A stretch of 64,000 nt of DNA from Spirochaetia bacterium. Lineage in GTDB: Bacteria; Spirochaetota; Spirochaetia; SZUA-6; Bin103. The position numbers were made by a program, and so were the translations under genes. Within the stretch, counting starts at the first letter, position 1. Each line of letters starts with the position of its first letter. Of the stretch, positions 13,762 through 56,070 are shown in pieces. The stretch is from NCBI GenBank assembly GCA_965198005.1, contig CBDAOI010000004.1:1613779-1677778 (forward strand), written 5' to 3'. The notes beneath the pieces were generated by a model that was not told the origin of the DNA, did not search any database, and saw only the letters and a program-made list of their open reading frames with translations.

Positions 13762-13803
13762 GGAGCTGGGAGGCGGTCGCCTGCAGGCGCGCCTCCCAGC
13801 TCC
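13762..13803. promoter_or_regulatory. intercistronic A-run plus GC-rich stem-loop between substrate-binding protein and permease
   Basis: GGGAGCTGGGAGGCG...CGCCTCCCAGCTCCC perfect inverted repeat. Confidence 0.5.
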
Positions 13804-13837
13804 CACAAACGCCGTGTAGAATGGCGAGACCTGTCAC

Positions 13838-14851: not shown

Positions 14852-14860
14852 AGAGGGCTT

Positions 14861-15793
14861 GTGAGCGACGCAGTCGAGGTACGATCCGCAGTAATCGCGT
14901 CAAAGAGACGTTCCCAGCTGGCCGAATTCTCTATAAGAATGGTGAAAGAGAAGCCGCTAGGTACTATCAGCGGGATTATCATATTGATATTGATTCTCGT
15001 CAGTATCTTTGCCGATGCTCTGGCACCCTATCCATACTGGGAAATGCACCTGGCAGACAGGCTGCAGGGCTCATCAGCCCAATATCTGCTGGGTACCGAC
15101 CAGTTGGGGCGAGACTTCTTGAGCCGCATCATCGTAGGGGCTCGTCTTTCCATATTTGTCGGTCTGGCGGCGACCGCTCTCAATGTTGTGGTCGCTGTCC
15201 TGATAGGCGGCATTTCAGGATTCCTTGGTGGTAAATTGGACCTGGTTATGCAGAGATTTGTCGATGCCTGGATGGCTTTCCCGGGGCTGCTCATATTGTT
15301 GACCGTGATGTCCATAGCGGGGCGGGGTGTGTTGCAGATAATACTGGTCCTGGGGATAGCGGGAGGGATCGGCACCTCGAGAGTAGTCAGGGGCGCGGTT
15401 ATCGGCATTAAAGAGAATGACTATTTTCTGGCGGCCCCGGCAGTTGGCAGCGGCGGCACCGCGACACTGATGCGACACGTCCTGCCCAATATCATGCCTG
15501 TCTTGATCATCATATTCAGCATCAGCGTCGGGGGGGTGATCATGAGTGAGGCCAGCTTGAGCTTCCTGGGATTCGGTCTGCCAGTCGAGGTTCCTAGCTG
15601 GGGAGGTCTGCTCAGCCGGGAAGGGCGCCAGTTCATGGAGGTGGCGCCGCGGCTGGCGATGTGGCCCGGTCTGTTCCTGACGGTGACGGTGTACTGCCTC
15701 AACATGTTCGGCGACGCGGTGCGGGATCTGCTCGACCCGCGGCTGCGGGGCGGTGGGGGTCACCTCGGGGCCGGCGGTGTCACGTCGGTTTAG
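14861..15793 (+). CDS. ABC transporter permease (DppC/OppC-like)
   Basis: LLGTDQLGRDFLSRIIVGARLS...KLDLVMQRFVDAWMAFPGLL. No ATPase gene follows. Confidence 0.85.
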   Translation: MSDAVEVRSAVIASKRRSQLAEFSIRMVKEKPLGTISGIIILILILVSIFADALAPYPYWEMHLADRLQGSSAQYLLGTDQLGRDFLSRIIVGARLSIFVGLAATALNVVVAVLIGGISGFLGGKLDLVMQRFVDAWMAFPGLLILLTVMSIAGRGVLQIILVLGIAGGIGTSRVVRGAVIGIKENDYFLAAPAVGSGGTATLMRHVLPNIMPVLIIIFSISVGGVIMSEASLSFLGFGLPVEVPSWGGLLSREGRQFMEVAPRLAMWPGLFLTVTVYCLNMFGDAVRDLLDPRLRGGGGHLGAGGVTSV

Positions 15794-34116: not shown

Positions 34117-34440
34117 CTAGTATATCATATCATTGACAATCGTATGTCCCGCTTGTATGGTCGATGGTGTGGAGTGGTGGGGTCCGGTCACCGCAATATC
34201 GGGTGCAGCAGTAGCGGTAGTGGCGATCGCGGCCGCGATCACCACTACCATTCAAGAGCATCCGGGATGAAGTCAAGAGCATCCGTGGGAGAGCTCAAGG
34301 TTCAGATCGGAACGGACATCCGCCGCGGGAGCTGAAGCGACCTGCTTACCGAATATCTGTTACAACGGGCGCGTGTCGTTGCTGCTTCAACGCCACTCTC
34401 GCTGCCTGCCTGCGGCGCCGCTCGACCCGGGGCAACCCAG
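34117..34440 (+). repeat. doubly deleted copy of the 41.6-42.8 kb coiled-coil cassette plus its about 100-bp boundary repeat. It occupies the position of the missing dppC.
   Basis: 34117-34330 matches 41657-41790 plus 42011-42030; 34316-34440 matches 42625-42760. The residual ORF encodes only the TM segment of the 41651 protein before a stop. Confidence 0.6.
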
Positions 34441-34475
34441 CGCGTGGCGTATCCGGTGTGGCACGGCTCATTGGC

Positions 34476-35477
34476 TCATTCATAGCGCACCCTCGGATCC
34501 AGGACCGCGTAGACCAGGTCGATGAGCAGATTGATCACCACCACCCCAGTGGCGAACAACAGGTTGATGCCGGAGACCATCGGGTAGTCTCGGTCATTGA
34601 GGGCATGCAGAAAGAGGCGACCGAGCCCCGGCAGGTTGAAGATGTTCTCCATGATCACCGCGCCCCCCACCAGGATCGGCAACTGCAGGCCGATCAGGGA
34701 CACCACCGGGATGAGGGCATTCTTGGCGGCGTGCCGGATCACCACGGCCCGCTCCTTCAGCCCCTTGGACCAAGCGGTCCGGATATAGTCCTGCCTCAGC
34801 ACCTCCAGCATCATGGTGCGCGTCATCCGCATGGTGGCGGCCGCCGAGGCCGTTCCCAGTATCAGGCCGGGAATGAGGAACACCGCCAGATTCCCCAGCG
34901 GGTCTTTCGTGAAGGAAACCAGCTCCAGCGGCGGCGCCCAGCCCCACCAGATGGCCGGGTAGATCATGACCATGACGCCCAGCCAGAAGTTGGGCGTGGC
35001 CAGGCCGATGATGGCGACCGAGCGCCCCAGGAAGTCTGCGACCGTATCCTGGCGAATCGCCGAGTAGATGCCGACCGGCAGCGCGATCACCAGCCCGATG
35101 AGGATTGCCATCAAACCAAGCTCGATGGTTACCGGCAGTCTACCTAGTATCCTGTCCTCTACCGCCAAACCGCCATACAGTGATTCGCCAAGCGTACCCT
35201 GGAGGAGACCTTTGAAGTGGGACTCACCGGTAACCCGGTCAGGGGTCGGCAACACCCCTATCCAGCGTCCGTACTGCACCCAGACAGGCACATCCAATCC
35301 CAGCCGACGCTCGAGCGCTGCACGGTCAATCCCCCCCGTTACGTAGATCTGCACCCGAGCCTCCAATACGTCTATGACATCGCCGGGGATGAAGCGGACC
35401 GAGAGAAAGACCAGGATGCTCAAGATAAACAGGGTGGGGACGACCAGCAGCAGCCGCCGGATGATGTAGGCTCTCAT
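34476..35477 (-). CDS. ABC transporter permease (DppB/OppB-like)
   Basis: MRAYIIRRLLLVVPTLF...RTAWSKGLKERAVVIRHAAKNALIPVVSL. Confidence 0.85.
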   Translation of the reverse strand: MRAYIIRRLLLVVPTLFILSILVFLSVRFIPGDVIDVLEARVQIYVTGGIDRAALERRLGLDVPVWVQYGRWIGVLPTPDRVTGESHFKGLLQGTLGESLYGGLAVEDRILGRLPVTIELGLMAILIGLVIALPVGIYSAIRQDTVADFLGRSVAIIGLATPNFWLGVMVMIYPAIWWGWAPPLELVSFTKDPLGNLAVFLIPGLILGTASAAATMRMTRTMMLEVLRQDYIRTAWSKGLKERAVVIRHAAKNALIPVVSLIGLQLPILVGGAVIMENIFNLPGLGRLFLHALNDRDYPMVSGINLLFATGVVVINLLIDLVYAVLDPRVRYE

Positions 35478-35493
35478 GTCTTCGTAGTAAATG

Positions 35494-35525
35494 GGCGCCG
35501 GGAAGATCGAGGCTCCCGGCGCCCT
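35494..35525. promoter_or_regulatory. intercistronic GC-rich stem-loop between substrate-binding protein and permease
   Basis: GGGCGCCGGGA...TCCCGGCGCCC. Confidence 0.45.
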
Positions 35526-35596
35526 TCTCTGCAGGCAGAACGAGCGCGAAACGCCCGCGGACCCCGCTGCCAGGCGTGGTCCGCGAAGCCGTTGCC

Positions 35597-37378
35597 TCAG
35601 AATCCCATTTCTTTCTTCAGGGCACTATCAATCCAGAGACGGGAGAAGATCACTTCCTCGCCCCCGCTTGATATCAGTTCACCGTTATAGCCTATGAGCC
35701 ACGGCTGGTTCACCGAAAACTGTGGAAGCAAAGGACCATATATCGTCCAGTATTGCTCTAATGCGTACATGACCAAGTCTGGCACCAGCCTGTTCCGCTC
35801 CTCGACGGTGGTCGCGGCTGCGGCTGCGGCATGCATGGCGTCATAAGTCGGGTCGTTGACGCTGCTATTTACACCATCCGTGGTAAACCCACTCATGATT
35901 GACACTGCCCACTGCATGGAAACAGCATACGCCGTATCGTTACTGGCCATTTCGTATTCCTGAGCTTTTCTTCTGGGGCCCCATGCAGCGTTTGGCGTTA
36001 CTTCAACCTCCACATCAACGCCAATCTTCTTCCAGTATGAAGCGGCTAATTCCGCATAGTTTAGATCGAAACGCTCAAGGTGCATCAACACGGTCTTGAA
36101 TCTAGTGCCGTCCGCGCCGCGAGGATACCCGGCAGCATCAAGCAACGCTTCGGCCCCTTCCGGGTTATACGTGCGGCCCTTCTGGAGCTCCTCGGGCCAC
36201 TCTTCAAATGGGGTGGAACCGTCTGTCATGAAACGGCCCAGCCGCCCTTGAGGCATCGGATCTGAGAAACCCTTGAAGTACGAATTGTCAATGGTTTCGA
36301 AGTCCAGTGCCATGTTCATTGCCTTGCGCACCCTGATGTCGTCAAAGGGTTCTATCTGAGTGTTCATTGCAAAACCATTGTCCGATCGAAACCGTACCGG
36401 CCACAATTCGACGTCGGGGTTGGTCCGCTGGATGCTCTCTACCTGCTCGATAGTCCGGAGTTGAGCTACCCCGGCCACACCCACGTAATCCACCTTACCC
36501 GTGCGCATTGCCGCCAGTTGTGTTGCCACTTCGGGCATAATCAGAGCCCTTAACGTGTCAACATATGGCAAACGGTTTTCCGGGTATTTTTCGTCGTAGC
36601 CCCAGTAGCCAGGATTCTTGGTATAGGTGATGGAGCTGCCCTCGGTCCAGTCAGTCAGCTCAAAAGGACCGGTGCCGACCAGGTTGCTCCAAGCCGTTAC
36701 GTCCCCGTGTTCCTTGATCACCTCGGGGGGGTACATGACAGCAAGGGAGTCGTCGAGGATAACCATCAGCGTAAGGAGATTTGGCTCCTTCAGCTTGAAA
36801 ACCACCGTCCATTTGTCGGTGGCCGTTATGGATTCGAATGACACCCCAGTCAAAACACTATAAGCAGCGCTAGGTTCGGTGAAGCCGCTGCCCAGACCCA
36901 GAGTACGGTGAAAGTTATATACGACATCGTCGGCAGTCAGCTCCCGACCGTTCATTGGTGCCTTATCGTGCCAGTGAACGCCCTGGCGGACTTTGACGAC
37001 AACTGTTTTGTCGTCGGGCATTTCCCAGCTCTCCGCCAGAGCCCCCCTCGTGTACTTTGGAGCGGCCATGGTCGGGAAGTTATATTCGTCCCTGGGCGTT
37101 GCCCAGTCGCCGATGCCTAGCTTCTCTACGACCAGGCCCACGGCCACGACACCCCCACTCAAATGTTTGTCAGTATGCGAGGGCGATTCTTTCTTGACGT
37201 AGGTTATTGTCCCGCCATACTCCGGCGCGGTCACCATCTTGCCGGTGGTCGGGTCGGTCACCATTTCCTTCTCCATCGCCGCGGCCGGCTCCTCCTCCGA
37301 GGCAGCCGCCCAGAGGCCGGTGGCGGTCAGTGCGAGGCCACACAGCACGGCGAGCGAAATGCGCATTACGAAATGCAT
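35597..37378 (-). CDS. ABC transporter substrate-binding protein, family 5
   Basis: 593 aa. Paralog of 11926 and 54155. Confidence 0.85.
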   Translation of the reverse strand: MHFVMRISLAVLCGLALTATGLWAAASEEEPAAAMEKEMVTDPTTGKMVTAPEYGGTITYVKKESPSHTDKHLSGGVVAVGLVVEKLGIGDWATPRDEYNFPTMAAPKYTRGALAESWEMPDDKTVVVKVRQGVHWHDKAPMNGRELTADDVVYNFHRTLGLGSGFTEPSAAYSVLTGVSFESITATDKWTVVFKLKEPNLLTLMVILDDSLAVMYPPEVIKEHGDVTAWSNLVGTGPFELTDWTEGSSITYTKNPGYWGYDEKYPENRLPYVDTLRALIMPEVATQLAAMRTGKVDYVGVAGVAQLRTIEQVESIQRTNPDVELWPVRFRSDNGFAMNTQIEPFDDIRVRKAMNMALDFETIDNSYFKGFSDPMPQGRLGRFMTDGSTPFEEWPEELQKGRTYNPEGAEALLDAAGYPRGADGTRFKTVLMHLERFDLNYAELAASYWKKIGVDVEVEVTPNAAWGPRRKAQEYEMASNDTAYAVSMQWAVSIMSGFTTDGVNSSVNDPTYDAMHAAAAAATTVEERNRLVPDLVMYALEQYWTIYGPLLPQFSVNQPWLIGYNGELISSGGEEVIFSRLWIDSALKKEMGF

Positions 37379-37961
37379 CAGATAACTCCTGTTGCTCGAG
37401 AGTACTGAATCGACTGCCGGCCCCTCGCCTACTCTCGAGTTATGCCTGCTTCAACGCCGGCGAGCACAAGCGAGGGCGACAGCGCGGGTCCCCAGGCGGT
37501 ACGGCGCTTGGAGACGAGCCCGGGTTTAGTCGTGGTTAGTCGTAACCGGTCTTGGGTGCCATCCCATCCTCCTTTGACGTGCGCGCACCACCGGCCGTTC
37601 GGATCGCGTCGGGACCTGCGTCCCAGCGTCCACGCGGCTGGCGAGGCGAGTTGGATTGGATTGGCCGGCGACGCCGGCGGTAGAGTTGATAAGTGGGTTG
37701 ATGAGGCCCGGTACGCCGGTCTCGGCGCTGAACGGACACCGCGTGAGGCGCCGGATGGGTTAGCTGTGTTGGGGGGGGGGGACTCCTCACCATTAAGCAA
37801 GCGCGCCGCGAGCTGATTTTCAGCAAATCTCGGCGCGCGGCTGTCAGGGGAACAGAGTGTCATAAGCGTTGACGTGTTATAAGTCACTCAAGCCCTCCGC
37901 AGGTGAGGCACAGCCATACCCAGATGTAGTCGCGATGTCGCGATTGACTGGATCCCACCCT
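37379..37961 (-). promoter_or_regulatory. about 580-nt 5' leader of the 35.6-kb substrate-binding-protein operon. It has a conserved 190-nt structured 5' block, a G11/C11 tract and a hairpin next to the ribosome-binding site.
   Basis: The 5' block 37770-37975 is about 90 percent identical (reverse-complemented) to 53528-53720. The ribosome-binding-site-proximal palindrome CTCGAGAGTA...TACTCTCGAG is shared with the 54.1-kb and 11.9-kb operons. Confidence 0.5.
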
Positions 37962-37990
37962 ATCGTAACCTCCGCTCCCGTGGACGTCAA
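37962..37990 (-). promoter_or_regulatory. sigma70-like promoter for the leader above
   Basis: On the minus strand: TTGACG, 17 nt, TACGAT, immediately before the conserved leader block. Confidence 0.4.
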
Positions 37991-38261
37991 CCACGAATCG
38001 GCCCAGCAATTCTCGGTGAACGGCAGTCGATGGCCTGAAGAGACAGTCTGGAGGGGCCCCCACCATTCGCCAACCCCCGCCGCGAAAGGATTCCGGGGGG
38101 GAGGGGATGGGCAAGGGTAGGACGCGCCGGTTGCGTTGCCCCTAACCGGTGGCAGCGCTGAGTAGTGTTTTCAGCCATCTTTTGCATCCGTTCAAACCTG
38201 AGACTTTCAGTATGCCACCCCTGCGGCACAAATCAACAGGAAAAACTGGCGAATTGAAGGT

Positions 38262-40420
38262 TTCTTGAGATTTCTTTCGGGCAGCCGCGGCAGCCGAGAG
38301 CCCCTCGCGGCGCCGACTCGGGCGCATCGCCCCTCCAGAGCCGTCATTCGCCGGCGATGTGGCCGTCCGCAGGCCGTTCACCGTCCACGTCGGCCTCACA
38401 GCGGCCCGCTGAGGGCATTCCAGCCCCTCGGGGGTAGCCTGGGTACGAGCGCCAGGCTAACTGGCATATGACAGAGGGTGAAAGTCCCTCGGAACGAAGG
38501 AGCAGCCAATCCACGTTTCTCCGCGAGCCGTGCGTTGGCACCTGCGAGGGTGCAGGCGAAGCGTCGGCAGCGGTGCGTGCGGGCAGAGTTATGGAGCGCC
38601 GCAAAATACGACATCTGGAGTGCCGAGACTCTGTACTCGGTCGAAGGCAACACCGGTCGAGCCAGTATGGTGAGGATCGACCGGGCTCCACGGCGTCGAA
38701 GAACTCAGGCACGTGCGTACGTCATATACCGGGACCTGGGAGGTCTTCGGGTCGTCCCGGCGAGTCGTCGCCGGGACCGCGGAGGGAAGGCGTGAGGCTG
38801 GACCAAAGATGAACGACCCGAAGGAGTCGGACATGGGCATAGTAGCGGCGAAGCCGGCGAACAAGGGAGCGCAAGCGACTGCGGAGACGGTGGAGCGAAG
38901 GCCCATGACCAACGGGAATTCGCAAGGTCAAAGCACGGGCCGGACGCAGAGTCGGGCAACCGTGACACAGGCGGCCGAGCGGATACGGCAATTCGTAAAG
39001 AGAGAACCGCAGGAGAAACTCACTGCGCTGCTGCACCACGTGACGCCGGAAGCGCTGCGGGTGGCCTATTACGCGCTGAAGCGTGAAGCGGCCCCGGGGG
39101 TGGACGGGATGACGTGGCGGGAGTACGAGACGGGGTTGGAAGTGCGCTTGCACGACCTGCACCGGCGAGTACACACAGGAGCGTACCGAGCGACCCCGGT
39201 ACGGCGGGTCAACATCGACAAGCCGGACGGAGGCACACGACCGCTGGGGGTGGCCGCGCTGGAGGACAAGATCGTCCAGAAGGCCGTGGTGGATGTGATC
39301 CTGACACCGATCTATGAGGAGGAATTTCTCGGGATCAGCTATGGGTTTCGACCGGGGCGCGGGGCACACGATGCGTTGGACGCACTGGCCTACGCCATCG
39401 AACGGCGCGAAGTGAACTGGATATTGGACGCGGACATTCGCGCCTACTTCGACACGATCTCGCGGGACTGGTTGATCAGATTCCTGGAGCATCGGATTGG
39501 AGATCGGCGGGTGCTGCGGCTGATAAAGAAGTGGCTGCGCGCTGGGGTACTGGAAGAAGGCCGACAGATCGACGCGGGGCGGGGTACAGCGCAAGGGTCG
39601 GTGATTTCACCGATGCTCGCGAATATATACTTGCACTACGTGTTGGACCTGTGGGTCACCAAGAAGTGGCGGCCGCAGGAGGCGCGCGGAGACATGATCA
39701 TAGTGCGCTACGCAGATGACTATGTCGCCGGGTTCGAGCATCGTGACGATGCGGAACGCTTCCTGCGGGAACTGAAGGAGCGATTCAGAGGCTTCGAGCT
39801 GGAACTGAACGCCGACAAGACCCGACTCCTCGAGTTTGGACGGTATGCCGAAAGGAACCGCCGAGCACGTGGGGAAGGGCGACCGGAGACGTTCGACTTT
39901 CTGGGTTTCACGCATTATTGCAGGAAGGACAGGAAAGGACGCTTCGGGCTGGGGCGGAAGCCAATTCGGAAGCGGATGAATCGTACGCTGAAGAGGATCA
40001 AGATCGAGCTCCGCAGACGAATGCATGATGACGTGATGGAAACCGGGCGCTGGCTGGGACGGGTACTGCGCGGATGGCTCAACTACTACGCGGTACCCAC
40101 CAGCTACCGCTATCTGCACCGATTCGTGTGGCGTCTGCGAGGAATCTGGGTAAAGATTCTACGCCGGAGGTCCCAGAAGGACCGATTCTCCTGGGCTTGG
40201 ATGCTGGCGATCAGCATCAAGCTGTGGCCCCAACCCCGAATCGTACACTCATGGCCGGACCGGCGATTTGCCGTCAACCACCGAAGGTAGGAGCCGGATG
40301 GTTTAACGACCACGTCCGGATCTGTGCGGGGGGCGCCGGGTAACCGGCGTTCCTACCGCGCCCCCCTGCAACACCCGTCAACGCCGATTCCCGGCACCGC
40401 TGGCTCCGTATTGACCGCGC
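38262..40420 (+). mobile_element. group II intron (retroelement). The RNA boundaries are approximate.
   Basis: Contains a complete reverse-transcriptase/maturase ORF. There is a GNRA-capped GC-rich hairpin 30-80 nt after the ORF stop (40324-40370) in the position expected for domain V. Structured GC-rich RNA-like sequence precedes the ORF. Confidence 0.6.
38809..40290 (+). CDS. group II intron-encoded reverse transcriptase/maturase (RT domains 0-7 plus X domain, no En/HNH domain)
   Basis: AAPGVDGMTWREYE..., RAYFDTISRDWLIRFLEH, QGSVISPMLANIYLHYVLD, IVRYADDYVAGF (YADD), and the X-domain WLNYYAVPTSYRYL. The ORF track starts at 38713; the likely true start is near 38809-38833. Confidence 0.85.
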   Translation: MNDPKESDMGIVAAKPANKGAQATAETVERRPMTNGNSQGQSTGRTQSRATVTQAAERIRQFVKREPQEKLTALLHHVTPEALRVAYYALKREAAPGVDGMTWREYETGLEVRLHDLHRRVHTGAYRATPVRRVNIDKPDGGTRPLGVAALEDKIVQKAVVDVILTPIYEEEFLGISYGFRPGRGAHDALDALAYAIERREVNWILDADIRAYFDTISRDWLIRFLEHRIGDRRVLRLIKKWLRAGVLEEGRQIDAGRGTAQGSVISPMLANIYLHYVLDLWVTKKWRPQEARGDMIIVRYADDYVAGFEHRDDAERFLRELKERFRGFELELNADKTRLLEFGRYAERNRRARGEGRPETFDFLGFTHYCRKDRKGRFGLGRKPIRKRMNRTLKRIKIELRRRMHDDVMETGRWLGRVLRGWLNYYAVPTSYRYLHRFVWRLRGIWVKILRRRSQKDRFSWAWMLAISIKLWPQPRIVHSWPDRRFAVNHRR

Positions 40421-40914: not shown

Positions 40915-41598
40915 TCAGCGCTTGCAGGTCAGGAACGACGTGAGGTGCGGGCTGCAGAGCCCCCCCCAGTCGCGCCCAAACCCGCGCGGCGGCTCGACGC
41001 TCTCCAGTTCGGCAAGATCAAGCCCGCACATCGCCTCCAGCCGCTGTGCGAGCGCGGACTCCTGGAGACTGTCGGGCAAGTGGTCGAGCCACGCTTGATA
41101 CTCACCCTGGAGGTCGAGCAGGGTGCCTACCGCATCCTGCCAGCGCTGCGGTCGGGACCTGCGGTCTTGCGGCCTGCGGTACTGCACCCGGGGCTGCGCT
41201 GCCTTGCGGCGCTCTCGATAGCGCCGTTGTCGTTCCGTGCGGTCACGCAGCATCGCGCACGCCACCGCGAGCAACCGGTCCGCGACCGTACGCAGCGCCC
41301 GGCCATGGCGCTGCCCGCGCGCGCGTAGCGCCGCATACCGCTCCCGACTCACCGGATCGTGCTGGATCGCCACCCGCGCCCAGTGATACATCGCGTTGCT
41401 CAGCCGCTGGTTGCAGGCACGGCGCATGCTCACCTGGCAACTCTTCCCCTGCGATTGATCAGCCCGTTGCGTTCCTCCTGCAACTCGGCAGTCCGGCGCG
41501 ACCATTCCCGCAACTCGATCACCGGCGGTGCCTGCACCTGCAACTGACGAAAGCTGCTGATAAGAAATCAGCCAGCCCGGCAGGTATCTTTGGCTCAC
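40915..41598 (-). pseudogene. IS110-family transposase, C-terminal portion only. The N-terminal DEDD domain is absent, and the C-terminal extension is unrelated.
   Basis: APDCRVAGGTQRADQSQGKSCQVSMRRACNQRLSNAMYHWARVAIQHDPVSRERYAALRARGQRHGRALRTVADRLLAVACAML parallels the IS110 block PRQHQSG..RGRISKRGN..LRRALYMAAL.A.RHNP....FY.RL...GK..KVALVA..RKLL....AML. Confidence 0.45.
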
Positions 41599-41650: not shown

Positions 41651-42100
41651 ATGAGCCGCAGTATATCATTGACAATCGTATGTCCCGCTTGTATAGTCGA
41701 TGGCGTGGAGTGGTGGGGTCCGGTCACCGCAATATCGGGTGCGGCAGTCGCGGTAGTGGCGATCGCGGCCGCGATCACCAGACCATTCAAGAGCATCCGG
41801 GATGAAGCTCGGCAGGCCCATGCCCTGATCGGGGAGAACATCAATGCCGTGCGCACCGACCTGGGCGCCAAGATCGACGGCGTGCGCGCCGAACTGCATG
41901 CCGACATCAAGGCGGTAGATGCCAAGGTCGACGGCGTGCGCACCGACCTCACCGCCAAGATCGACGGCGTGCGCACCGACCTGACCGACTTGGCCAAAGA
42001 CGTGGGAGAGCTCAAGGTCCAGATCGGCCGGATCGACGAACGCACCAGAGCATCGACCGAACAGACGAACGCTCCACTCCCGTCACCCCCACAGCATTAG
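41651..42100 (+). CDS. small membrane-anchored coiled-coil protein with imperfect 13-residue repeats (VRTDLxAKIDGVR)
   Basis: 149 aa. N-terminal hydrophobic helix VTAISGAAVAVVAIAAAIT, then repeats. No family assignment is possible from sequence alone. Confidence 0.45.
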   Translation: MSRSISLTIVCPACIVDGVEWWGPVTAISGAAVAVVAIAAAITRPFKSIRDEARQAHALIGENINAVRTDLGAKIDGVRAELHADIKAVDAKVDGVRTDLTAKIDGVRTDLTDLAKDVGELKVQIGRIDERTRASTEQTNAPLPSPPQH

Positions 42101-42121
42101 TGCACAGGCGGATGAAGTGGG

Positions 42122-42522
42122 CTACGCGACGCCTTCCCGCGGCTTGTCGGGCGGCTGGTTGCGGCTGCTCCAGAACAGCCCCTCGATGATTCCCTCGACC
42201 TTCGACAGCCGGTCCCCGATGTTGACGACGCGTGCGGTGAGTTCCTTGAAGCCGGCCTGCATCTCTGCCCGCAGCCGGCCGTCGCCGGCCCTTATTTCGT
42301 CCCGCAACGCGCTCTCGACGCCCTTTATTTCGTCCCGCAACGCGCTCTCGACGCCCTTTATTTCGTCCCGCAACGTGCTCTCGACGCCCTTTATTTCGTC
42401 CCGCAACGCGCCTCACTGGCCCGCAACTCGCGCAACTCGTGACGGATGCCGCGATTGGACGCCAACGTCACGGTGCCGAGGGCGATTGTCGCTGCGATGA
42501 TCCCTATCAGCTCCAGGCTCAT
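42122..42522 (-). CDS. second small membrane-anchored coiled-coil repeat protein, convergent with 41651-42100. It is interrupted by a 1-nt frameshift at the first of 3.5 tandem 36-bp repeats.
   Basis: ATG at 42522 with GGAGAG ribosome-binding site. MSLELIGIIAATIALGTVTLASNRGIRHELRELRASEAR, then out of frame, then (A)LRDEIKGVES x3 ... GIIEGLFWSSRNQPPDKPREGVA. Confidence 0.4.
42283..42420. repeat. tandem 36-bp repeat (about 3.5 units), coding for a 12-aa repeat
   Basis: CGCTCTCGACGCCCTTTATTTCGTCCCGCAACGCG repeated head-to-tail. The first unit carries one extra base. Confidence 0.8.
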
Positions 42523-42651
42523 GTACACCTCTCCGGCGCTCCGCTCCCTGCCCGGCAGTCTACCGCTTGGCGGCCACGGTGTCACCTTGGCTGCGGCCCC
42601 ACGCCTCCTCGCCACGCCGAAGTCGCGCACGACGGACATCCGCCGCGGGGA

Positions 42652-42760
42652 GCTGAAGCGACCTGCTTACCGAATATCTGTTACAACGGGCGCGTGTCGT
42701 TGCTGCTTCAACGCCACTCTCGCTGCCTGCCTGCGGCGCTGCTCGACCCTGGGGCACCGC
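42652..42760. repeat. about 100-bp boundary repeat shared with 34334-34440
   Basis: Direct sequence identity over about 100 bp with 2-3 mismatches. Confidence 0.75.
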
Positions 42761-43140
42761 AGCGCGTGGCTCAGGGACACCACCGGGATGAGGGCATTCT
42801 TGACGGCGTGCCGGATCACCACGGCCCGCTCCTTCAGCCCCTTGGACCAGGCGGTGCGGATAGGGCGTGGCTTCAATGAGTAAGGGAGCTGGGAAGTCTG
42901 AGCCTCCCAGCTCCCTTTTTTTGGCCTGAGGCCAGGCACAACGGGTGCAACCCCTAATGCCCCATTTCTTCCTTCAGCTCAGAATCAACCCAGAGGCGGG
43001 TGAAGACCGTATTGTATTGACCGCGTCCCAACGCCAATTCACCGTTAAAACTCTTGACCCACGGCTGGACGGCCACATACTGTGGGGCCGCACCACCCCA
43101 TATCTGCCAGAACTGCTCTATCGCATACGAGGCGATCAGC
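42760..43140 (-). pseudogene. remnant of a fourth ABC operon: substrate-binding-protein C-terminal about 60 aa, intercistronic hairpin, and about 30 aa of permease B
   Basis: Minus-strand translation of 42950-43140 gives ...AYAIEQFWQIWGGAAPQYVAVQPWVKSFNGELALGRGQYNTVFTRLWVDSELKEEMGH. 42667-42850 gives IRTAWSKGLKERAVVIRHAVKNALIPVVSL. Hairpin GGGAGCTGGGAAGTCTGAGCCTCCCAGCTCCC at 42884-42915 with a T7 run on the plus strand. Confidence 0.5.
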
Positions 43141-43340
43141 CGGAGCGGTTAGTTGTTTCTCGGTTCGAAAAGTGTGTGTGTGTGGGGGGGGGGGACGATA
43201 GGATGCACCGGCTGCGTCACTGCCAACCGGCCACTGCGCTGACTGTCATCATGGCACCCTCCCGGTGCACCCGAGCACGCCCGCCGCACCCCGGCGCTTC
43301 GGCGAGCGCGCACGCCTTGCGCGGCGGACGAGCGTTTCCG
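43130..43340 (-). promoter_or_regulatory. truncated substrate-binding-protein leader fragment, including the (GT)6 G11 tract
   Basis: Reverse complement matches the 53.7-kb leader (GATCAGCCGGAGCGGTTAGTTGTT...CGAAAAG) and the 11.2-kb leader (CATGATGACA.TCAG...AGTGGCCGGTTGGC.GTGACGCAGC). Confidence 0.45.
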
Positions 43341-48077: not shown

Positions 48078-49631
48078 TCAGCCGTCCGCCACCTCGAACG
48101 CGGTCACGTTGCGCGTCTCGCGGCTGAACTCCACCCCGATCAGGTGGATCGGCTGTTTCAGGTGACGGTACTTGGCCGCGTAATCCCGGCTCTCGAGCTG
48201 CGCCAGCGCCGACCCCGGCGGCGCCATCTCCACGACCTTGAACTCGAACAGGTACACGTGCCCGCCGGTGCGCACCGCCATGTCCAGCCGACCGTGGCTG
48301 CTCGACTCCTCCACTGCGATCTCGTACCCCAGCGCCGCGAAGTAGGAGTAGACCACGCTTGCGTAGAAGCCCTCGTAATCGGCGATGGCGTTGTTCGTGT
48401 ACCACTGGTACGGGATGCTCGCGAAAAAGGCGTGGAACAGCTCCTTCAGCCCCGCGCAGTCGTGCGCCTCCAGCAATCGCGCCAAACGCACGCTGTTGGC
48501 CGTCTGCCGCTCCGCGTCCTGCACCAGTTGCCGCAGCAGCACCCGGTTCAGGCTCTGGCGCACCTCCCGGTTGGGATAGCCCAGCCGATACAGCGCCATG
48601 CCGCCCAGCTCCTCTTCCCCCGTAATCGTCAGGTAGCCGGTCTGGAACAGCAGCGCTTCGGTGCCGATGTGCTCTACGTCGAACTTCGACAGCAGATCCT
48701 CCGTGCTCACCGTCCGGTCCAGTGACACCGACGCGACCCGGCGCTCGAACAGCGTGTCCACCAGGAACGCCGGGGTCCCGGTCTCGAACCAGTGGGCGGC
48801 AAACTTGCGACGGCGCAGCAGCAGCAGCACGTCGTACGGGTTGTACACCCTCTCCGCGCCCAGCCAGCTATAGCCGTTGTACCACTCGCGCACCCGCTCC
48901 CGGTCCAGGCCTTCCAACTCCGGCGCGAACACCGTCTCCAGGTCGCCCTCCGTGTAGCCGCAGATCGACGAGTAAGCCGGATCCAGGGTGATGTCGGTGA
49001 GGTTGTTCAGGTCGGAAAACAAGCTCACCTTGGTGAACTTGCTCACCCCGGTCACGAACGTGAACCGCACGTGCGCGTCGCTCGCCTTGATCACCCCGTA
49101 CAGGCCGCGCAGGTAGTCGCGGTTGGCACGGGCGATCTCCGGCGTCTCCAGCGCGTCCAGGATCGGCTTGTCGTACTCGTCCACCAGCACCGCCACCCGC
49201 TGCCCGCTCCGCTCGTGCAGCGACCGGATCAGGTAGCCGAACCGTTCAGGCGGCGTGTCGTAGCGCGGACTCACCCCGGTGGCTACCTCCATGCCGTCCA
49301 ACTGCGCCGCCAGGTTGATCCGGAGATAGCCCGGATCCTTGAAGCTCCCGCCGGCGAAGTCCAGCCGCACCACCGGGTGGCGCGCCGACCAGTTCCAGTC
49401 CCCGTGGTCGTGGACGTGGAGCCCCGTGAACAGCTCCTCGTTGCCCTCGAACAGCTCCTTCAGGGTGTCCAGAAGCAGACTCTTGCCGAACCGCCGCGGG
49501 CGCGACAGGAAATAGTGGGCGCCTTCATCGAGCAGCCGTTCGATGTAGGGCGTCTTGTCCACGTAATAACAGTCCTGTTCGCGCAGCTTGCGGAAGGTCT
49601 GCATGCCGATGGGCAGTCTGCGTCGGGCCAC
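48078..49631 (-). CDS. AAA-ATPase-like (PF09820-type) N-domain plus PD-(D/E)XK (PDDEXK_9-type) C-domain protein, copy 1
   Basis: MARRRLPIGMQTFRKLREQDCYYVDKTPYI...LSRPRRFGKSLLLDTLKELFEGNEELF. C-terminal GRLDMAVRTGGHVYLFEFKVVE. Confidence 0.7.
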   Translation of the reverse strand: MARRRLPIGMQTFRKLREQDCYYVDKTPYIERLLDEGAHYFLSRPRRFGKSLLLDTLKELFEGNEELFTGLHVHDHGDWNWSARHPVVRLDFAGGSFKDPGYLRINLAAQLDGMEVATGVSPRYDTPPERFGYLIRSLHERSGQRVAVLVDEYDKPILDALETPEIARANRDYLRGLYGVIKASDAHVRFTFVTGVSKFTKVSLFSDLNNLTDITLDPAYSSICGYTEGDLETVFAPELEGLDRERVREWYNGYSWLGAERVYNPYDVLLLLRRRKFAAHWFETGTPAFLVDTLFERRVASVSLDRTVSTEDLLSKFDVEHIGTEALLFQTGYLTITGEEELGGMALYRLGYPNREVRQSLNRVLLRQLVQDAERQTANSVRLARLLEAHDCAGLKELFHAFFASIPYQWYTNNAIADYEGFYASVVYSYFAALGYEIAVEESSSHGRLDMAVRTGGHVYLFEFKVVEMAPPGSALAQLESRDYAAKYRHLKQPIHLIGVEFSRETRNVTAFEVADG

Positions 49632-49804: not shown

Positions 49805-51358
49805 TCAGCCGTCCGCCACCTCGAACGCGGTCACGTTGCGCGTCTCGCGGCTGAACTCCACCCCGATCAGGTGGATCGGCTGTTTCAGGTGACGGTACTT
49901 GGCCGCGTAATCCCGGCTCCGGAGCTGCGCCAGCGCCGACCCCGGCGGCGCCATCTCCACGACCTTGAACTCGAACAGGTACACGTGCCCGCCGGTGCGC
50001 ACCGCCATGTCCAGCCGACCGTGGCTGCTCGACTCCTCCACTGCGATCTCGTACCCCAGCGCCGCGAAGTAGGAGTAGACCACGCTTGCGTAGAAGCCCT
50101 CGTAATCGGCGATGGCGTTGTTCGTGTACCACTGGTACGGAATACTCGCGAAGAAGGCGTGGAACAGCTCCTTCAGCCCCGCGCAGTCGTGCGCCGCAAG
50201 CAGCCGTTGCAGGCGGATGCTGTTCGCGGTCTGCTGTTCGCTGTCCTCCACCAGATGCTGCAGTAGATACTCATTCAGGCTCTGCCGCACCTCGCGGTTG
50301 GGGTAGCCCAGCCGGTACAGCGCCTTGCCGCCCAGCTCCTCTTCCCCGGTGATCGTGAGGTAACCGGTCTGGAACAGCAGCGCCTCGGTGCCGATGTGCT
50401 CTACGTCGAACTTCGACAGCAGCGCCTCGGTGCTCACCGTCTGGTCCAGCGACACCGACGTGACCCGCCGCTGGAACAGCGTGTCCACCAGGAACGCCGG
50501 GGTCCCGGTCTCGAACCAGTGGGCGGCAAACTTGCGACGGCGCAGCAGCAGCAGCACGTCGTACGGGTTGTACACCCTCTCCGTACCCAGCCAGCTATAG
50601 CCGTTGTACCACTCGCGCACCCGCTCCCGGTCCAGGCCTTCCAACTCCGGCGCGAACACCGTCTCCAGGTCGCCCTCCGTGTAGCCGCAGATCGACGAGT
50701 AAGCCGGATCCAGGGTGATGTCGGTGAGGTTGTTCAGGTCGGAAAACAAGCTCACCTTGGTGAACTTGCTCACCCCGGTCACGAACGTGAACCGCACGTG
50801 CGCGTCGCTCGCCTTGATCACCCCGTACAGGCCGCGCAGGTAGTCGCGGTTGGCACGGGCGATCTCCGGCGTCTCCAGCGCGTCCAGGATCGGCTTGTCG
50901 TACTCGTCCACCAGCACCGCCACCCGCTGCCCGCTCCGCTCGTGCAGCGACCGGATCAGGTAGCCGAACCGTTCAGGCGGCGTGTCGTAGCGCGGACTCA
51001 CCCCGGTGGCTACCTCCATGCCGTCCAACTGCGCCGCCAGGTTGATCCGGAGATAGCCCGGGTCCTTGAAGCTCCCGCCGGCGAAGTCCAGCCGCACCAC
51101 CGGGTGGCGCGCCGACCAGTTCCAGTCCCCGCGGTCGTGGACGTGGAGCCCCGTGAACAGCTCCTCGTTGCCTTCGAACAGCTCCTTCAGGGTGTCCAGA
51201 AGCAGACTCTTGCCGAACCGCCGCGGGCGCGACAGGAAGTAATGCTTGCCCTCGTCCAGCAACCGCGCGATGTAGGGCGTCTTGTCCACGTAATAACAGT
51301 CCTGTTCGCGCAACTCGCGGAAGGTCTGCATGCCGATGGGCAGTCTGCGTCGGGCCAC
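49805..51358 (-). CDS. AAA-ATPase-like plus PD-(D/E)XK protein, copy 2. Tandem duplicate, about 95 percent identical to copy 1.
   Basis: Same length (517 aa), with identical N- and C-termini. The unit period is 1727 bp. Confidence 0.7.
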   Translation of the reverse strand: MARRRLPIGMQTFRELREQDCYYVDKTPYIARLLDEGKHYFLSRPRRFGKSLLLDTLKELFEGNEELFTGLHVHDRGDWNWSARHPVVRLDFAGGSFKDPGYLRINLAAQLDGMEVATGVSPRYDTPPERFGYLIRSLHERSGQRVAVLVDEYDKPILDALETPEIARANRDYLRGLYGVIKASDAHVRFTFVTGVSKFTKVSLFSDLNNLTDITLDPAYSSICGYTEGDLETVFAPELEGLDRERVREWYNGYSWLGTERVYNPYDVLLLLRRRKFAAHWFETGTPAFLVDTLFQRRVTSVSLDQTVSTEALLSKFDVEHIGTEALLFQTGYLTITGEEELGGKALYRLGYPNREVRQSLNEYLLQHLVEDSEQQTANSIRLQRLLAAHDCAGLKELFHAFFASIPYQWYTNNAIADYEGFYASVVYSYFAALGYEIAVEESSSHGRLDMAVRTGGHVYLFEFKVVEMAPPGSALAQLRSRDYAAKYRHLKQPIHLIGVEFSRETRNVTAFEVADG

Positions 51359-52028: not shown

Positions 52029-52730
<702 letters not shown>

Positions 52731-53059
52731 TCGTGGGGCTTTCGGGAGGTGTGGGTGGAGGTGCCGGACGAGCCTGCGCCGAGCCGGCCGGCTGTGCTTG
52801 GTCCCGGTCTGACGATCTACGTGTCGGGGCGGGCGGGGCTGCGTCCGGCGCCGGCGAGCTGAATCGGGTGGGGCGTTTGCTGGGTGCTGCGGAGGGCACG
52901 GGGCCGGATAGCGATCCGTTCTTGCGGAGCCAGCGCCGCGAGAGCCACGCCGCGGGATGGGTAGGGGGGCATGCCGAAGGCCGGGCGGAGGCCCAGCGTG
53001 CGAGTGCGCTACAGGTGCTCGAGACCCGTGGCGTTGCCGTATCGGCTTCCCTGGCGGCG

Positions 53060-53350
53060 CGGTTGGCAGAGATGGACACGCACCACACCTCTCACCTTGA
53101 CCCTGCGTCGGAATGCGCCGGAAAAGGTGCTTGACGCCTTGCTGTCTCCCGAGACGGCGAGCCCGCCCTCAGCCGTCCGCCACGTCGAACGCCGTCACGT
53201 TGCGCGTCTCGCGGCTGAACACTGGTACGGAATGCTCGCGAAGAAGGCGTGAAACAGCTCCTTCAGGCCCGCGCAGTCGTGCGCCTCCAGCTTGCGGAAG
53301 GTCTGCATGCCGATGGGCAGTCTGCGACGGGCCACACCTCATCTTACCCC
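53060..53350 (-). pseudogene. deletion-riddled third copy of the AAA-ATPase-like/PD-(D/E)XK gene (3' end, a middle block and 5' end only)
   Basis: 53070-53220 matches the 3' flank and C-terminus of copies 1 and 2. 53221-53290 matches the WYGMLAKKAWNS...CAS block. 53291-53350 matches the N-terminus plus upstream flank. Confidence 0.5.
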
Positions 53351-53498
53351 GTCGCCGGTCGAGTGGCCGCCGCCGGCGCAGCCTGATCGCGGGTGCTACG
53401 CCGGGCGTAAGCTTGTCGACGGGGTGTCGGAGTGTCGGGGTGCTGATCGATCTGCCGGGTGACTTCAAGAAACTTCGGCAGTTGGGCCGTTTCGTGGT

Positions 53499-53527
53499 TT
53501 GACTCCCACGGGAGCCGAGGTTATTAT
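53499..53527 (+). promoter_or_regulatory. near-consensus sigma70-type promoter for the 54.2-kb ABC operon leader
   Basis: TTGACT, 17 nt, TATTAT, directly before the conserved leader block. Confidence 0.5.
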
Positions 53528-54154
53528 ATGGTGGGATGCAGTCAATCGTGACTACATCTGGGTATAGCTGTGCCTCACCTGCGGAGGGCTTGAGTGACTT
53601 ATAACACGTCAACGCTTATGACACTCTGTTCCCCTGACAGCCGCTCGCCGAGAATTGCTGAAAATCAGCTCGCGGCGGGCTTGCTTAATGGTGAGGAGTC
53701 CCCCCCCACACACACACTTTTCGTACAACAGAGCAACCGAGAACAACTAACCGCTCCGGCTGATCGCTCCGTGCGCGTCCCCGCGCACGCCGTCGCCTTC
53801 ACCACGACGCCTGCGCCCACGGCGGCAGCCAGCCGTGGCGCCGGCTCGTGCGATCGCCGACCGAGCCAGCGCAGCGACGTCGTCACCTTCACAGCCCGCC
53901 ACCGCCCGGCGCCGGCCTTGCCGACCACTCGGACTCGCTGCCTCGCCGACCGACACAGGCGTGGGGTGCCACGCCTGTCCACGCATACAAGGAGGCACGG
54001 GATGACACCCAAGACGGGATACGACTAACGCCCCAAGACCGCCGCGCGGGGCGGACACGGAACGACCGAGGGTGTCGCCCTTGCTTTCGAGAGTAGGCGA
54101 GGGGTCGGCAGTGGAATCGGTACTCTCAGAATCAACAATTCGAGGAGATTCTCA
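53528..54154 (+). promoter_or_regulatory. about 630-nt 5' leader with a conserved structured 5' block, a C8(CA)5 tract and a hairpin next to the ribosome-binding site
   Basis: See the 37379-37961 leader. The internal hairpin GC(G/T)CGCCGAGA-TTGCTGAAAATCAGC-TCGCGGCG(C/G)GC carries a G-C to U-G covariation between the two copies. Confidence 0.5.
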
Positions 54155-55939
54155 ATGAGTAATCTGTTCAAAACATGCGTCGCCGTAGTGTTCGGTCTCG
54201 TGCTGATCGCCATCGGCGTCGGGGCAAGCCCGGCCGGGGAAGAGGAGCCGGCCGCGGCGATGGAGAAGGAGATGGTGCTCGACCCCACCACCGGCAAGAT
54301 GGTGTCGGCGCCGGAGTATGGCGGCACATTCACCTGGGGCGATGCCACCGGGGCTCCGCACTGTGACCCTCACATCCATGGCTGGGGGCCACGGGCCATC
54401 GACGGCGTTGCAGAGAGGCTAGGCATCAGGGACTGGGCAGCAGATAGGAACGAAATCAGCTTTTCAGACTCTTATACTCCTCTCCGTTTCGTGAGAGGGG
54501 CGCTGGCGGAAAGCTGGGAGATGATCGACTCACTGACGTATGTCTACCACATCCGCAAGGGCGTTCGCTGGCACGACAAAGCGCCGATGAATGGTCGGGA
54601 GTTCACTGCCCAGGATGTCGTATACAACTTTCACCGTTATACGGGTTCGGGCAGCGGCTTCACCGAACCTAGCGCCGCTGCTGGCACACTCGCTTCGATA
54701 CCACTCGAATCGATAACCGCCAGCGACGATTCGACGGTTGTCTTCAAGCTGACGCAGCCAAAGGTAGACTTGCTGGATGTCCTTGCCATCGACTGGAGTG
54801 CCGCTATGTTACCCCCAGAGGTAATCGAGCAATACGGCGACCTGACGGACTGCGACAACATGGTCGGTACCGGGCCCTATATGCTGACAGAATGGGTCGA
54901 TAACACGTCTATGACGTATTCCAAGAATCCTGACTACTGGGGCTTTGACGAAAAATATCCGGAGAACCGCTTGCCCTACATCGACCAGATAAACCGGCTA
55001 ATCATGCCGGAAAAGGAAACACAGCTGGCGGCGCTACGCTCGGGTAGGCTCGATTACATCGGTCAGTCCGGCGGGGGTCAGTTACAAGTGGCCCAGGTGG
55101 AGAACCTACAGCGGACCAACCCCGAAATCGTTTTATACCCGTGGGCCTTTCGGTCGGAGACCTCTGTTGCATTCAACCTGCGCCACCCGTCGCCCTTTCA
55201 AGACATCAGGGTTCGCAAGGCGATGCAGATGGCCATTGATCTGGAGACCATCAACAATACTTACTTTCGTGGCTTTGCAATGACGAAACCCCAAGGAATC
55301 ATAGGAGACGGTCTGAAGGGGTACTACATCCCATTCGAAGAGTGGCCCGAAGAGACCAGGAAAGTCTTTGCGTATGACCCGGAAGGGGCCGAAGCGTTGC
55401 TTGATGAGGCTGGGTATCCGCGCGGTGCGGATGGCATTCGATTCAAGACCGTCCTGAACCCCGTGCCCTCGTGGGATGTGGGTTATCAAGAAATAGCCGC
55501 TGAATACTGGGCTGCGATTGGCGTTGACGTAGAGGTTAAGATAACTGAAGTCGCTCAACTGATGGCGCTGGTAACTGAAGGTACTTATGAAGGGATGGCC
55601 TATATGGATATCGGCAATGACGGCTCGATTCAATGGCTGATGAGTGTTCTTCAAATCGGAGCGCAATGGGGCCGCACAGGACATCAGGACCCGGTGATGG
55701 ACGCCAAGGCAAAAGCCGCTATGGCCGCTACCAGGCTCGAGGAGCAGCAGCGGCTGGTGGCGGAGGCAGATATGTACTCGATCCAGCAGCATTGGTTCAT
55801 ATGGGGTCCTAAAGTTCCCCAATTTGAGGCGGTGCAGCCGTGGGTGATAGGTTTTAACGGTGAAATCTGGTATACTACACATGCGCCTTTCGAGCGCCTG
55901 TGGATCGATAGTGCGCTGAAGAGCGAAATGGGTTTCTGA
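54155..55939 (+). CDS. ABC transporter substrate-binding protein, family 5
   Basis: 594 aa. Paralog of 11926 and 35597. Confidence 0.85.
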   Translation: MSNLFKTCVAVVFGLVLIAIGVGASPAGEEEPAAAMEKEMVLDPTTGKMVSAPEYGGTFTWGDATGAPHCDPHIHGWGPRAIDGVAERLGIRDWAADRNEISFSDSYTPLRFVRGALAESWEMIDSLTYVYHIRKGVRWHDKAPMNGREFTAQDVVYNFHRYTGSGSGFTEPSAAAGTLASIPLESITASDDSTVVFKLTQPKVDLLDVLAIDWSAAMLPPEVIEQYGDLTDCDNMVGTGPYMLTEWVDNTSMTYSKNPDYWGFDEKYPENRLPYIDQINRLIMPEKETQLAALRSGRLDYIGQSGGGQLQVAQVENLQRTNPEIVLYPWAFRSETSVAFNLRHPSPFQDIRVRKAMQMAIDLETINNTYFRGFAMTKPQGIIGDGLKGYYIPFEEWPEETRKVFAYDPEGAEALLDEAGYPRGADGIRFKTVLNPVPSWDVGYQEIAAEYWAAIGVDVEVKITEVAQLMALVTEGTYEGMAYMDIGNDGSIQWLMSVLQIGAQWGRTGHQDPVMDAKAKAAMAATRLEEQQRLVAEADMYSIQQHWFIWGPKVPQFEAVQPWVIGFNGEIWYTTHAPFERLWIDSALKSEMGF

Positions 55940-56070
55940 GCATGTCGCCGTAGGCGACTTGCAGTGGACCCGCCTTCAGGCGGGGCACGAGCGGCTCCGC
56001 CGTTGGCTGAATCAATCGCCCGTTGGGCGATTGAAACGGGAGTCGCTGCGCGACTCCACGAGCACCGCGG

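Follow-up and report, generated by a model that had tools for sequence, protein, structure and literature searches.

A 64-kb stretch of DNA from a Spirochaetia bacterium (contig CBDAOI010000004.1; hereafter the window, 64,000 nt at its full length) contains three intact ATP-binding cassette (ABC) operons, op11, op35 and op54, each with a gene for a family-5 substrate-binding protein (SBP; SBP_bac_5) and permease genes 3' of it, and the region under study is the 5' leader of op35 (37379-38236, minus strand). On the evidence of its sequence, this leader belongs to a lineage-specific family of about 50 modular leaders in high-GC bacteria, while the hairpin adjacent to the SBP ribosome-binding site (RBS) is a conserved RNA element with no Rfam match. 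These long 5' leaders are probably cis-acting and probably repeat-tunable. As to their mode of action, the reading that is preferred, with a probability of about 40%, is a translation-coupled, Rho-type attenuation, which would be gated by a first upstream open reading frame (uORF1), tuned by the length of a C-rich repeat and followed by a second checkpoint at the RBS. The original prediction for this DNA had argued for a cis-regulatory RNA; the long leaders and the covarying RBS-adjacent element are in line with it, but the shared block of about 190 nt in which a riboswitch had been seen does not behave as one.

A lineage-specific family of modular leaders

Related loci were collected by searching a single genome of each species with the three window SBPs as an alignment, which gave 80 loci, 52 of them from five metagenome-assembled genomes (MAGs) labelled Spirochaetia or Spirochaetaceae, where up to dozens of paralogues occur per genome of ~7 Mb. 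When a hidden Markov model (HMM) of the RBS-adjacent motif was applied with nhmmer, the motif was found in 46 of these 52 loci, five more being recognised by eye, and in no locus among the 28 contributed by other MAGs; all the HMM matches lie on the sense strand, directly 5' of the SBP start. Since the same elements recur in dozens of related loci, in the same order and on the sense strand only, chance is not a sufficient explanation for them. The ~50 paralogues are only ~50% identical. An attempt to widen the family through JGI metagenomes, by a single pattern scan, yielded just one further lineage, MKWU01004483.1, together with one chance match in a CRISPR-like array; the former comes from a metagenome of the sponge Aplysina aerophoba, among the bins of which is one of Spirochaetaceae (PMC5649159).

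BLAST searches with the three window leaders against all the loci revealed that the leaders are mosaics of shared modules, arranged in the order sigma70-like promoter, 5' module with uORF1, C-rich repeat, post-C module (A/U-richer, ACUUUUCGA...CAACUAACCG), spacer of ~250 nt, second upstream open reading frame (uORF2), GC-rich hairpins and RBS-adjacent hairpin, after which come an A-rich linker, the Shine-Dalgarno sequence and the SBP start codon. The 5' module belongs to at least two unrelated sequence families, the rarer type A and the commoner type B, which are interchangeable together with their promoters. The modules of the window are located as follows.

38209-38236, minus, op35: putative upstream promoter P1, TTGATT-16-CATACT, weak (8/12 matches), below the promoter-scan threshold and read from the sequence
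38095-38187, minus, op35: copy of type-B uORF1 (MQKMAENTTQRCHRLGATQPARP...) running into a C-rich tract at 38095-38111; nhmmer match 38208-38104, E=2.6e-6
37962-37990, minus, op35: promoter P2, TTGACG-17-TACGAT, the only promoter-like site found in a scan of 37300-38500
37782-37961, minus, op35: type-A 5' module with a conserved AUG (AACGCUUAUG) and a nested hairpin at 37801-37841
37771-37781, minus, op35: C11 homopolymer (G11 on the plus strand), predicted unpaired (0.92), giving Pro codons in any frame
37576-37770, minus, op35: C-rich, G-poor spacer, its composition resembling that of a Rho utilization (rut) site
37536-37575, minus, op35: Shine-Dalgarno sequence AAAGGAGG (37568-37575) and uORF2, MAPKTGYD-stop (37536-37562), with a tandem ACGACTAA duplication at 37526-37543
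37395-37480, minus, op35: RBS-adjacent element with segment A, GUCGCCCUCGCU (37469-37480), hairpin H (37444-37462), helix B/B', CUCGAGAGUA...UACUCUCGAG (37395-37439), the loop of this helix containing A', GGCGAGGGG
35597-37391, minus, op35: SBP_bac_5 gene (35597-37378, ATG at 37378) with its Shine-Dalgarno sequence (AGGAG)
53499-53767, plus, op54: cassette of promoter TTGACT-17-TATTAT (53499-53527), type-A block (53528-53699), C8 and (CA)5 (53700-53717) and post-C module (53718-53767)
53988-54128, plus, op54: Shine-Dalgarno sequence (53988-53995), uORF2, MTPKTGYD-stop (54002-54028), segment A (54074-54085) and helix B/B' (54087-54128); hairpin H absent
54155-55939, plus, op54: SBP_bac_5 gene
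11099-11234, plus, op11: cassette of promoter TTGACG-17-TATACT (11099-11127) and type-B uORF1, MPMKRHDDIQSSGRLAVTQQPVYSPPPR-stop (11148-11234), including C12 at 11218-11229
11742-11900, plus, op11: Shine-Dalgarno sequence (11742-11750), uORF2, MILKEPHARAA-stop (11755-11790), hairpin H (11840-11857) and helix B/B' (11861-11900)
11926-13749, plus, op11: SBP_bac_5 gene
43132-43254, minus: decayed chimeric leader with type-B module, C11, (AC)6 and a post-C module of op54 type, fused to the remnant of an SBP 3' end (43001-43128)

The sigma70-like sites that had been expected directly 5' of the shared block were recovered in op35 and op54, and the consensus promoter of op11 is also present. Of the 26 promoter-like sites predicted on the sense strand, 16 precede the hairpin by 400-700 nt, the antisense strand having nine sites in total. 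The hairpin itself had been placed some 600 nt past the C run; the actual distance is ~330-380 nt from the C run and ~550-590 nt from the promoter.

Mosaicism is evident within the window. In op35, a second upstream cassette (38095-38236) combines a type-B module and a C-rich tract with a weak promoter of its own. Two copies of the motif AAUGGUG(R)GG(R)G, each preceding a C run, are present in this leader (~38050-38068 and 37782-37794, minus strand); they flank P2 and the type-A block, whose arrival may be due to an insertion or to unequal recombination involving two motifs of this kind. The fourth leader copy announced for 43.1-43.3 kb does exist, as the decayed chimera fused to an SBP 3' end that is listed above. 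Furthermore, residues 39-594 of the op35 SBP are 97%, 93.5% and 93.3% identical to the proteins of loci L002, L003 and L004, whose signal peptides and leaders are of other types, and therefore leader and signal peptide seem to have been swapped together as a cassette; the junction lies at a conserved AAAMEKEM motif, near residue 39. A second assembly of the op35 locus (L001) is 99.6% identical overall, with four single-nucleotide differences clustered at promoter P2 (37962-38010), including a change of the -35 box from TTGACG to TTGGCG, and it lacks the 10-nt ACGACTAACC duplication after uORF2 (window 37526-37543).

Conserved elements within the leaders

In op11, op35 and op54, a hairpin of the form GAGAGUAG...UACUCUC stands just 5' of the SBP ribosome-binding site. 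A 10-bp palindrome had been described there, and the hairpin is indeed found in all three operons (37395-37439, 10 bp; 54087-54128, ~8 bp; 11861-11900), but the full 10 bp are formed in op35 only. The GAGAG/CUCUC core hardly varies among 49 sequences, and the inner pairs covary, AU being replaced by GC in seven and UA by CG in two. In the 26 type-1 sequences, 87% of the cells are paired and nine pairs have changed on both sides, while 36-50% are paired in slid controls; for covariation, a score of 0.162 compares with 0.122 ± 0.009 in shuffles, none of 500 shuffles reaching the observed value. In helix B/B', six pairs have changed on both sides. The conservation of RNA structure which the original prediction had expected from a wider alignment is thus found at this element, with compensatory changes across 26-49 sequences, as in a structured cis-regulatory RNA. 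In addition, a candidate pseudoknot would join an upstream GCCCUCGC to the loop GCGAGGG, being 95% paired in type 1, with one compensatory and eight wobble changes. In type-2 leaders, three variant sequences, read by eye, are uncompensated, and therefore the pseudoknot is claimed for type 1 only. An all-against-all analysis of column covariation was uninformative, its signal being dominated by the split between subtypes.

Both conserved upstream ORFs had been overlooked in the original prediction. The type-B 5' module, which occurs in ~30 places and for which a consensus secondary structure was discarded, as RNAalifold predicts zero pairs, contains uORF1, the AUG of which is conserved in 17 of 25 type-B copies. 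Its peptides form a family, MPMKRHDDSQRSGRLAVTQPVH or MPMKRHDDSQRSGRLAVTQP followed by Pro codons, with a second form starting MQKMAENTTQRCHRLAATQP. At its 3' end stand 3-5 Pro codons or Pro-rich repeat units, the C tract supplying 3-5 Pro codons, and about half of the copies stop 2-15 codons past the C tract. In the better-sampled subgroup, the ratio of non-synonymous to synonymous polymorphism (pN/pS) is 0.43 in the AUG frame, compared with 2.05 and 1.01 in the shifted frames, and the mean pairwise difference is 0.17, 0.25 and 0.35 at the first, second and third codon position, respectively.

The second frame, uORF2, is preceded by a near-perfect Shine-Dalgarno sequence, (A)AGGAGG(UG), with GGAGG 4-6 nt before an AUG, GUG or UUG in ~40 of 50 leaders. 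It takes the forms MILKEPHARAA-stop (type 2), M[A/T/E/Q/P]PKTGYD-stop or MKSPYD-stop (type 1a), and a start-stop (M-stop), MQN-stop or MRN-stop (type 1b), and its pN/pS is 0.46 in frame, compared with 0.89 and 1.84 in the shifted frames. In op11, uORF2 overlaps the 5' arm of a GC-rich helix, P0 (3' arm 11804-11815). The features of leader peptides are therefore present, namely constrained short ORFs with a start signal (uORF1 and uORF2) and, at the putative stall site, regulatory (Pro) codons.

The homopolymers reported for the three leaders, C11 in op35, C8 in op54 and C12 in op11, are all there, and they make up three of only five runs of at least eight identical bases in the 64 kb, the others being an 11-base run at 43184-43194 and a C8 at 40960-40967. 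Across the 4-kb regions of the related loci, C-dense tracts (at least 11 C in 14 nt) fill 21 locus-bins between -800 and -300 and three elsewhere, and the same scan showed no equally G-dense stretch in the leaders. Of the 82 simple-sequence repeats detected with TRF and a homopolymer search, 50 lie in the interval from -750 to -250, and nearly every leader has one there; as in contingency loci, the repeat stands at a position where it may affect expression. The leader repeat units are C-rich on the sense strand in all cases, lengths of 1, 7, 8 and 10 nt dominating, most of them not multiples of three. Besides poly-C, there are units of 7, 8 and 10 nt in up to 14.5 copies (for instance CCCTCACG, ACCCGACT, TCCACTCG, AATCCCGTCC, CGTACCC and CCATTCGG). 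Copy number changes faster than the surrounding sequence, since near-identical paralogous leaders differ in it: L048 and L062, tandem paralogues of one genome whose leaders are near-identical from the promoter onward, indels aside, share a 10-mer that is present in ~3 and 14.5 copies, respectively, and L016 and L041 have 4 and 8 copies of one 8-mer. The C tracts are located ~95-190 nt downstream of the predicted -10 boxes, which does not fit a switch acting through promoter spacing, as in tpr. As a separate observation, G8-G12 runs occur on the sense strand ~470-670 nt upstream of the SBP match in L021, L044, L049 and L075, all from Dehalococcoidia MAGs, that is, in a different phylum and with a polarity opposite to that of the Spirochaetia C tracts.

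Downstream, the leader spacer of ~250 nt has a C content of 0.38-0.41 and a G content of 0.26-0.28. It is without 3-base periodicity (median chi-square 6.8, compared with ~20 in coding sequence), and periodicity at p<0.01 is seen in 4% of leader spacers as against 71-80% of SBP coding regions. ORFs of 100-200 codons span the middle of many leaders, yet a real gene at this place was rejected, given that codon periodicity is missing and stop triplets are not depleted, and the long mid-leader ORFs can therefore be regarded as a by-product of base composition. A scan for terminators in 37300-38500 gave none on the leader strand.

Surroundings of the three operons

The window has a G+C content of ~65-70%, and the SBP genes stand out by a lower one (0.54-0.58; 12001-15000, 35001-37000 and 54001-56000) compared with the surrounding genome (0.65-0.74). 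As to the substrate of the SBPs, no NCBIfam equivalog was matched at or above its cut-off. The op35 operon appears truncated, with a single permease gene followed by dapB. Just upstream of its leader, on the opposite strand, lies a group II intron (38481-40290, plus), with RF02005 at 38481-38705 (169.5 bits) and then a reverse-transcriptase ORF (38713-40290). In the op11 leader, the spacer segment 11596-11706 (minus) gives a sub-threshold match to the D1-D4 model of group II introns (24 bits, E=1e-4) and may be an intron remnant. A segmental duplication (34127-34785 and 41663-42862, 96-97% identity) joins the region 3' of op35 to the decayed 43-kb leader, and two arrays of 33-nt tandem repeats (41841-42016 and 42253-42417, 4-5 copies each) lie within the duplicated segment.

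A decayed paralogous operon at 4454-6893 (minus) consists of an SBP C-terminal fragment (6219-6893), split permease ORFs and an ORF (4454-5569) with an OppC N-terminus fused to a HigB-like toxin domain; the leader motif was not detected upstream of it. Approximately 1 kb 5' of the op54 SBP gene there is a truncated SBP_bac_5 paralogue (52235-53134, plus), which matches positions ~115-253 of the 368-position Pfam profile. The tandem genes 48078-49631 and 49805-51358 encode AAA-ATPase_like plus PDDEXK_9 proteins, with a 300-nt stretch 99% identical between both, and a third, partial copy (53122-53361) is situated ~140 nt upstream of the op54 promoter.

Proposed attenuation, rival readings and known systems

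A leader-peptide attenuation of the tna/mgt type, gated by uORF1, is proposed because the Pro codons of uORF1 head a C-rich untranslated tract and because precedents exist in polyproline/rut combinations, in mgtCBR and in tna, all of which are compared below. Ribosomes translating uORF1 would reach, or stall at, the Pro-rich repeat, which heads a C-rich tract of the Rho-loading type, and would in this way decide whether transcription proceeds through the spacer. The mutable length of the repeat would determine how many Pro codons uORF1 contains, as well as its frame and stop, amounting to a heritable setting for each operon, and each transporter may be tuned separately. In a second step, uORF2, with its strong Shine-Dalgarno sequence, and the RBS-adjacent structure would act as a further checkpoint, on translation or on mRNA stability.

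Several observations weigh against this attenuation. The involvement of Rho is predicted from base composition only, and the transcription start sites are consensus matches. The idea that the spacer is unusually unstructured had to be given up, as its flanks are predicted to be at least as unpaired. The spacer shows no depletion of stop triplets (187 observed and 162 expected from dinucleotide shuffles, z=+2.6), and therefore selection for a long, frame-set read-through of uORF1 was rejected. The Shine-Dalgarno sequence of uORF1 is weak, its second subgroup has no codon-position signal, and in the ORF of the type-A block all three differences between the copies are non-synonymous. With a ribosome footprint modelled at the uORF2 stop, the accessibility of the SBP Shine-Dalgarno sequence hardly changed (0.38 vs 0.35, 0.44 vs 0.43), so that an opening or closing of this site was discarded as a mechanism, and no mutually exclusive structures coupled to the ribosome position appeared in this model. 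Slipped-strand phase variation, which the original prediction had raised, agrees with the C-rich repeat of nearly every leader and with the different counts in near-identical leaders, but no tract-length difference was found between independent assemblies in the op35 and op54 records: the C11 of op35 is equally long in both assemblies of that locus, the op54 leader is 100% identical in another record, possibly that of the window's own assembly, and the op11 protein is not on record. Moreover, contig names suggest 5-12x coverage, which makes the exact homopolymer lengths uncertain.

It is unlikely, although it has points in its favour, that the leaders are riboswitches or protein-binding attenuators in which the 190-nt block or the RBS-adjacent element binds a metabolite or a protein. 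The block is certainly shared, as 37765-37936 and 53545-53716 are 95% complementary over 172 nt (89.7% over 242 nt, promoters included); it folds better than shuffles (z=-3.8), and its nested hairpin has the same fold in both copies, both substitutions falling on one predicted pair, which is preserved through the double change from G-C to U-G. The RBS-adjacent element, with its invariant loop and stem bases and its covarying pairs, also resembles aptamers and protein operators. Nevertheless, the covariation of the nested hairpin is a single event in two copies, and these two, 95% identical, are the only complete type-A blocks, fragments alone being found outside the window. In L068, the promoter and the 5' half of type A up to AACGCUUAUG are directly followed by C7, the half holding the hairpin being missing, and hence the hairpin is absent from the sole diverged copy; L030 keeps only the 3' end, AAUGGUGAGGAGU and then C11, and its counterpart folds no better than shuffles (z=-0.01). 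The fold is therefore not kept in diverged homologues, as it is in structured RNAs generally, and the view of the block as a conserved riboswitch-like aptamer was abandoned. In other leaders this position is taken by other modules, no alternative partner for the Shine-Dalgarno sequence came to light, and one ligand for ~50 paralogues as dissimilar as these would be unusual. Nor did the Rfam scan, which had been suggested as a check, give any cis-regulatory or riboswitch match to the leaders: at the gathering score, the whole window yields a group II intron and two tRNAs only, and the leaders of op35 and op11, scanned up to E=5, have chance-level matches only.

The remaining readings concern single parts of the leader. 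The repeat might act without translation, as a platform for Rho or a C-binding protein, through a template-strand G-quadruplex or through an hmw-like RNase III hairpin, its copy number serving as a rheostat. This is rather improbable: the repeats are all C-rich, on the sense strand only, several units form G3N5-7 arrays on the template strand, and precedents are available in hmw (PMC12721329), tlpB (PMC8295292) and antisense G-rich heptamers upstream of ORFs (PMC4692102), but GGG runs are missing from about half of the units, the C tracts are predicted unpaired (0.72-0.92) with no G-rich partner in the G-poor spacer, so that no hmw-type pairing of the repeat with a G-rich arm is found, and both the conserved AUG and the in-frame synonymous excess of uORF1 would be left aside. 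A leader for mRNA processing and stabilisation, in which the transcript is trimmed and a stabilising Shine-Dalgarno (STAB-SD)-like site and the stable hairpin protect an SBP mRNA of high expression, the upstream parts being dispensable, likewise has little probability. Almost all leaders, some of them with a bare start-stop, have a perfect AAGGAGG(UG) ~100-215 nt before the 3' end of the hairpin, a geometry like that of cry3A (PMC4113751); against this stand the optimal spacing of the Shine-Dalgarno sequence to a start codon, the constrained peptide, and the fact that uORF1, the repeats and the excess of C over G in the spacer are left unexplained. Finally, gene conversion and duplication could have spread leader fragments as non-functional by-products, with repeats arising from neutral slippage. 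The extensive mosaicism, the chimeras and decayed copies and the swapping of cassettes would suit such an origin, which is nonetheless highly improbable in view of the conserved order and strand of the modules, the covarying hairpin, the pN/pS below 1 in both uORFs and the confinement of the repeats to one position.

If the attenuation reading is true, leader-peptide attenuation, polyproline/EF-P (elongation factor P) sensitivity and repeat-based contingency switching would be united in one reusable cassette, copied ~50 times per genome before a hugely expanded transporter family in uncultured bacteria, and the repeat-based tuning of individual genes would extend beyond the surface antigens of pathogens. 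In its widest form, which is at present doubtful, each importer operon would have its own hypermutable repeat in a Pro-rich leader peptide gating Rho-type termination, together with a pseudoknotted RNA at every RBS, giving the population of a nutritional symbiont, and not of a pathogen, a combinatorial, heritable and reversible uptake repertoire in the manner of contingency loci. The work also provides an RNA motif without Rfam match, in ~50 examples with covariation, and two conserved families of micro-peptides.

Among known systems, the E. coli tna operon has a leader with a short peptide that runs, at its 3' end, up to a Rho-loading tract, from which a spacer of ~220-250 nt leads to the first structural gene. 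When a ribosome stalls at the tnaC end, it covers the neighbouring rut site. The Spirochaetia leaders resemble the tna leader in the short ORF abutting a C-rich tract of rut-like composition and in the spacer of ~250 nt, but here the putative stall signal is a Pro run or repeat instead of tryptophan-bound TnaC, a second uORF and a pseudoknot-like element are present, and the role of Rho is predicted. In Treponema pallidum, the poly-G tracts of tpr are upstream of paralogous genes, at the promoter or the transcription start site; homopolymeric G/C tracts 5' of spirochaete paralogues are thus a trait shared by both, although in the present leaders they follow the -10 box by the distance given above.

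The Salmonella mgtCBR and mgtA leaders are likewise long, with two short ORFs, one of them Pro-rich, ahead of a transporter operon, and in mgtCBR Pro codons of a tandem-uORF attenuator control transcription into the operon (PMC3641672); there is no sequence similarity, however, no alternative stem-loops were identified here, and the Pro codons lie in a mutable homopolymer or repeat, in ~50 paralogous copies per genome. Consecutive Pro codons followed by a C-rich tract, which make expression dependent on Rho and EF-P, are also the basis of the combination of polyproline with rut sites, where expression falls ~30-fold, in a Rho-dependent manner, without EF-P (PMC5021804), though that system consists of engineered or natural E. 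coli ORFs and not of a dedicated leader. In the transcribed leaders of H. influenzae hmw, with its (ATCTTTC)n repeat in the 5' untranslated region (PMC12721329), and of H. pylori tlpB, with a G-repeat (PMC8295292), the length of a pyrimidine-rich or homopolymeric repeat sets expression, as is proposed here; yet no G-rich arm or small-RNA partner was found, the repeat is inside or at the end of a uORF, and the host is apparently a symbiont and not a pathogen. The STAB-SD of cry3A, at ~-129 in the -558 transcript (PMC4113751), and the start-stops (bioRxiv 10.1101/520783) share with these leaders a perfect Shine-Dalgarno sequence deep in a leader of ~550 nt, in some cases with a bare AUG-UAG, whereas most uORF2 copies encode conserved peptides of 3-11 residues. 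Leader-peptide control and contingency-repeat control are therefore both known, and it is their combination in one leader, as suggested by the present sequences, that would be new.

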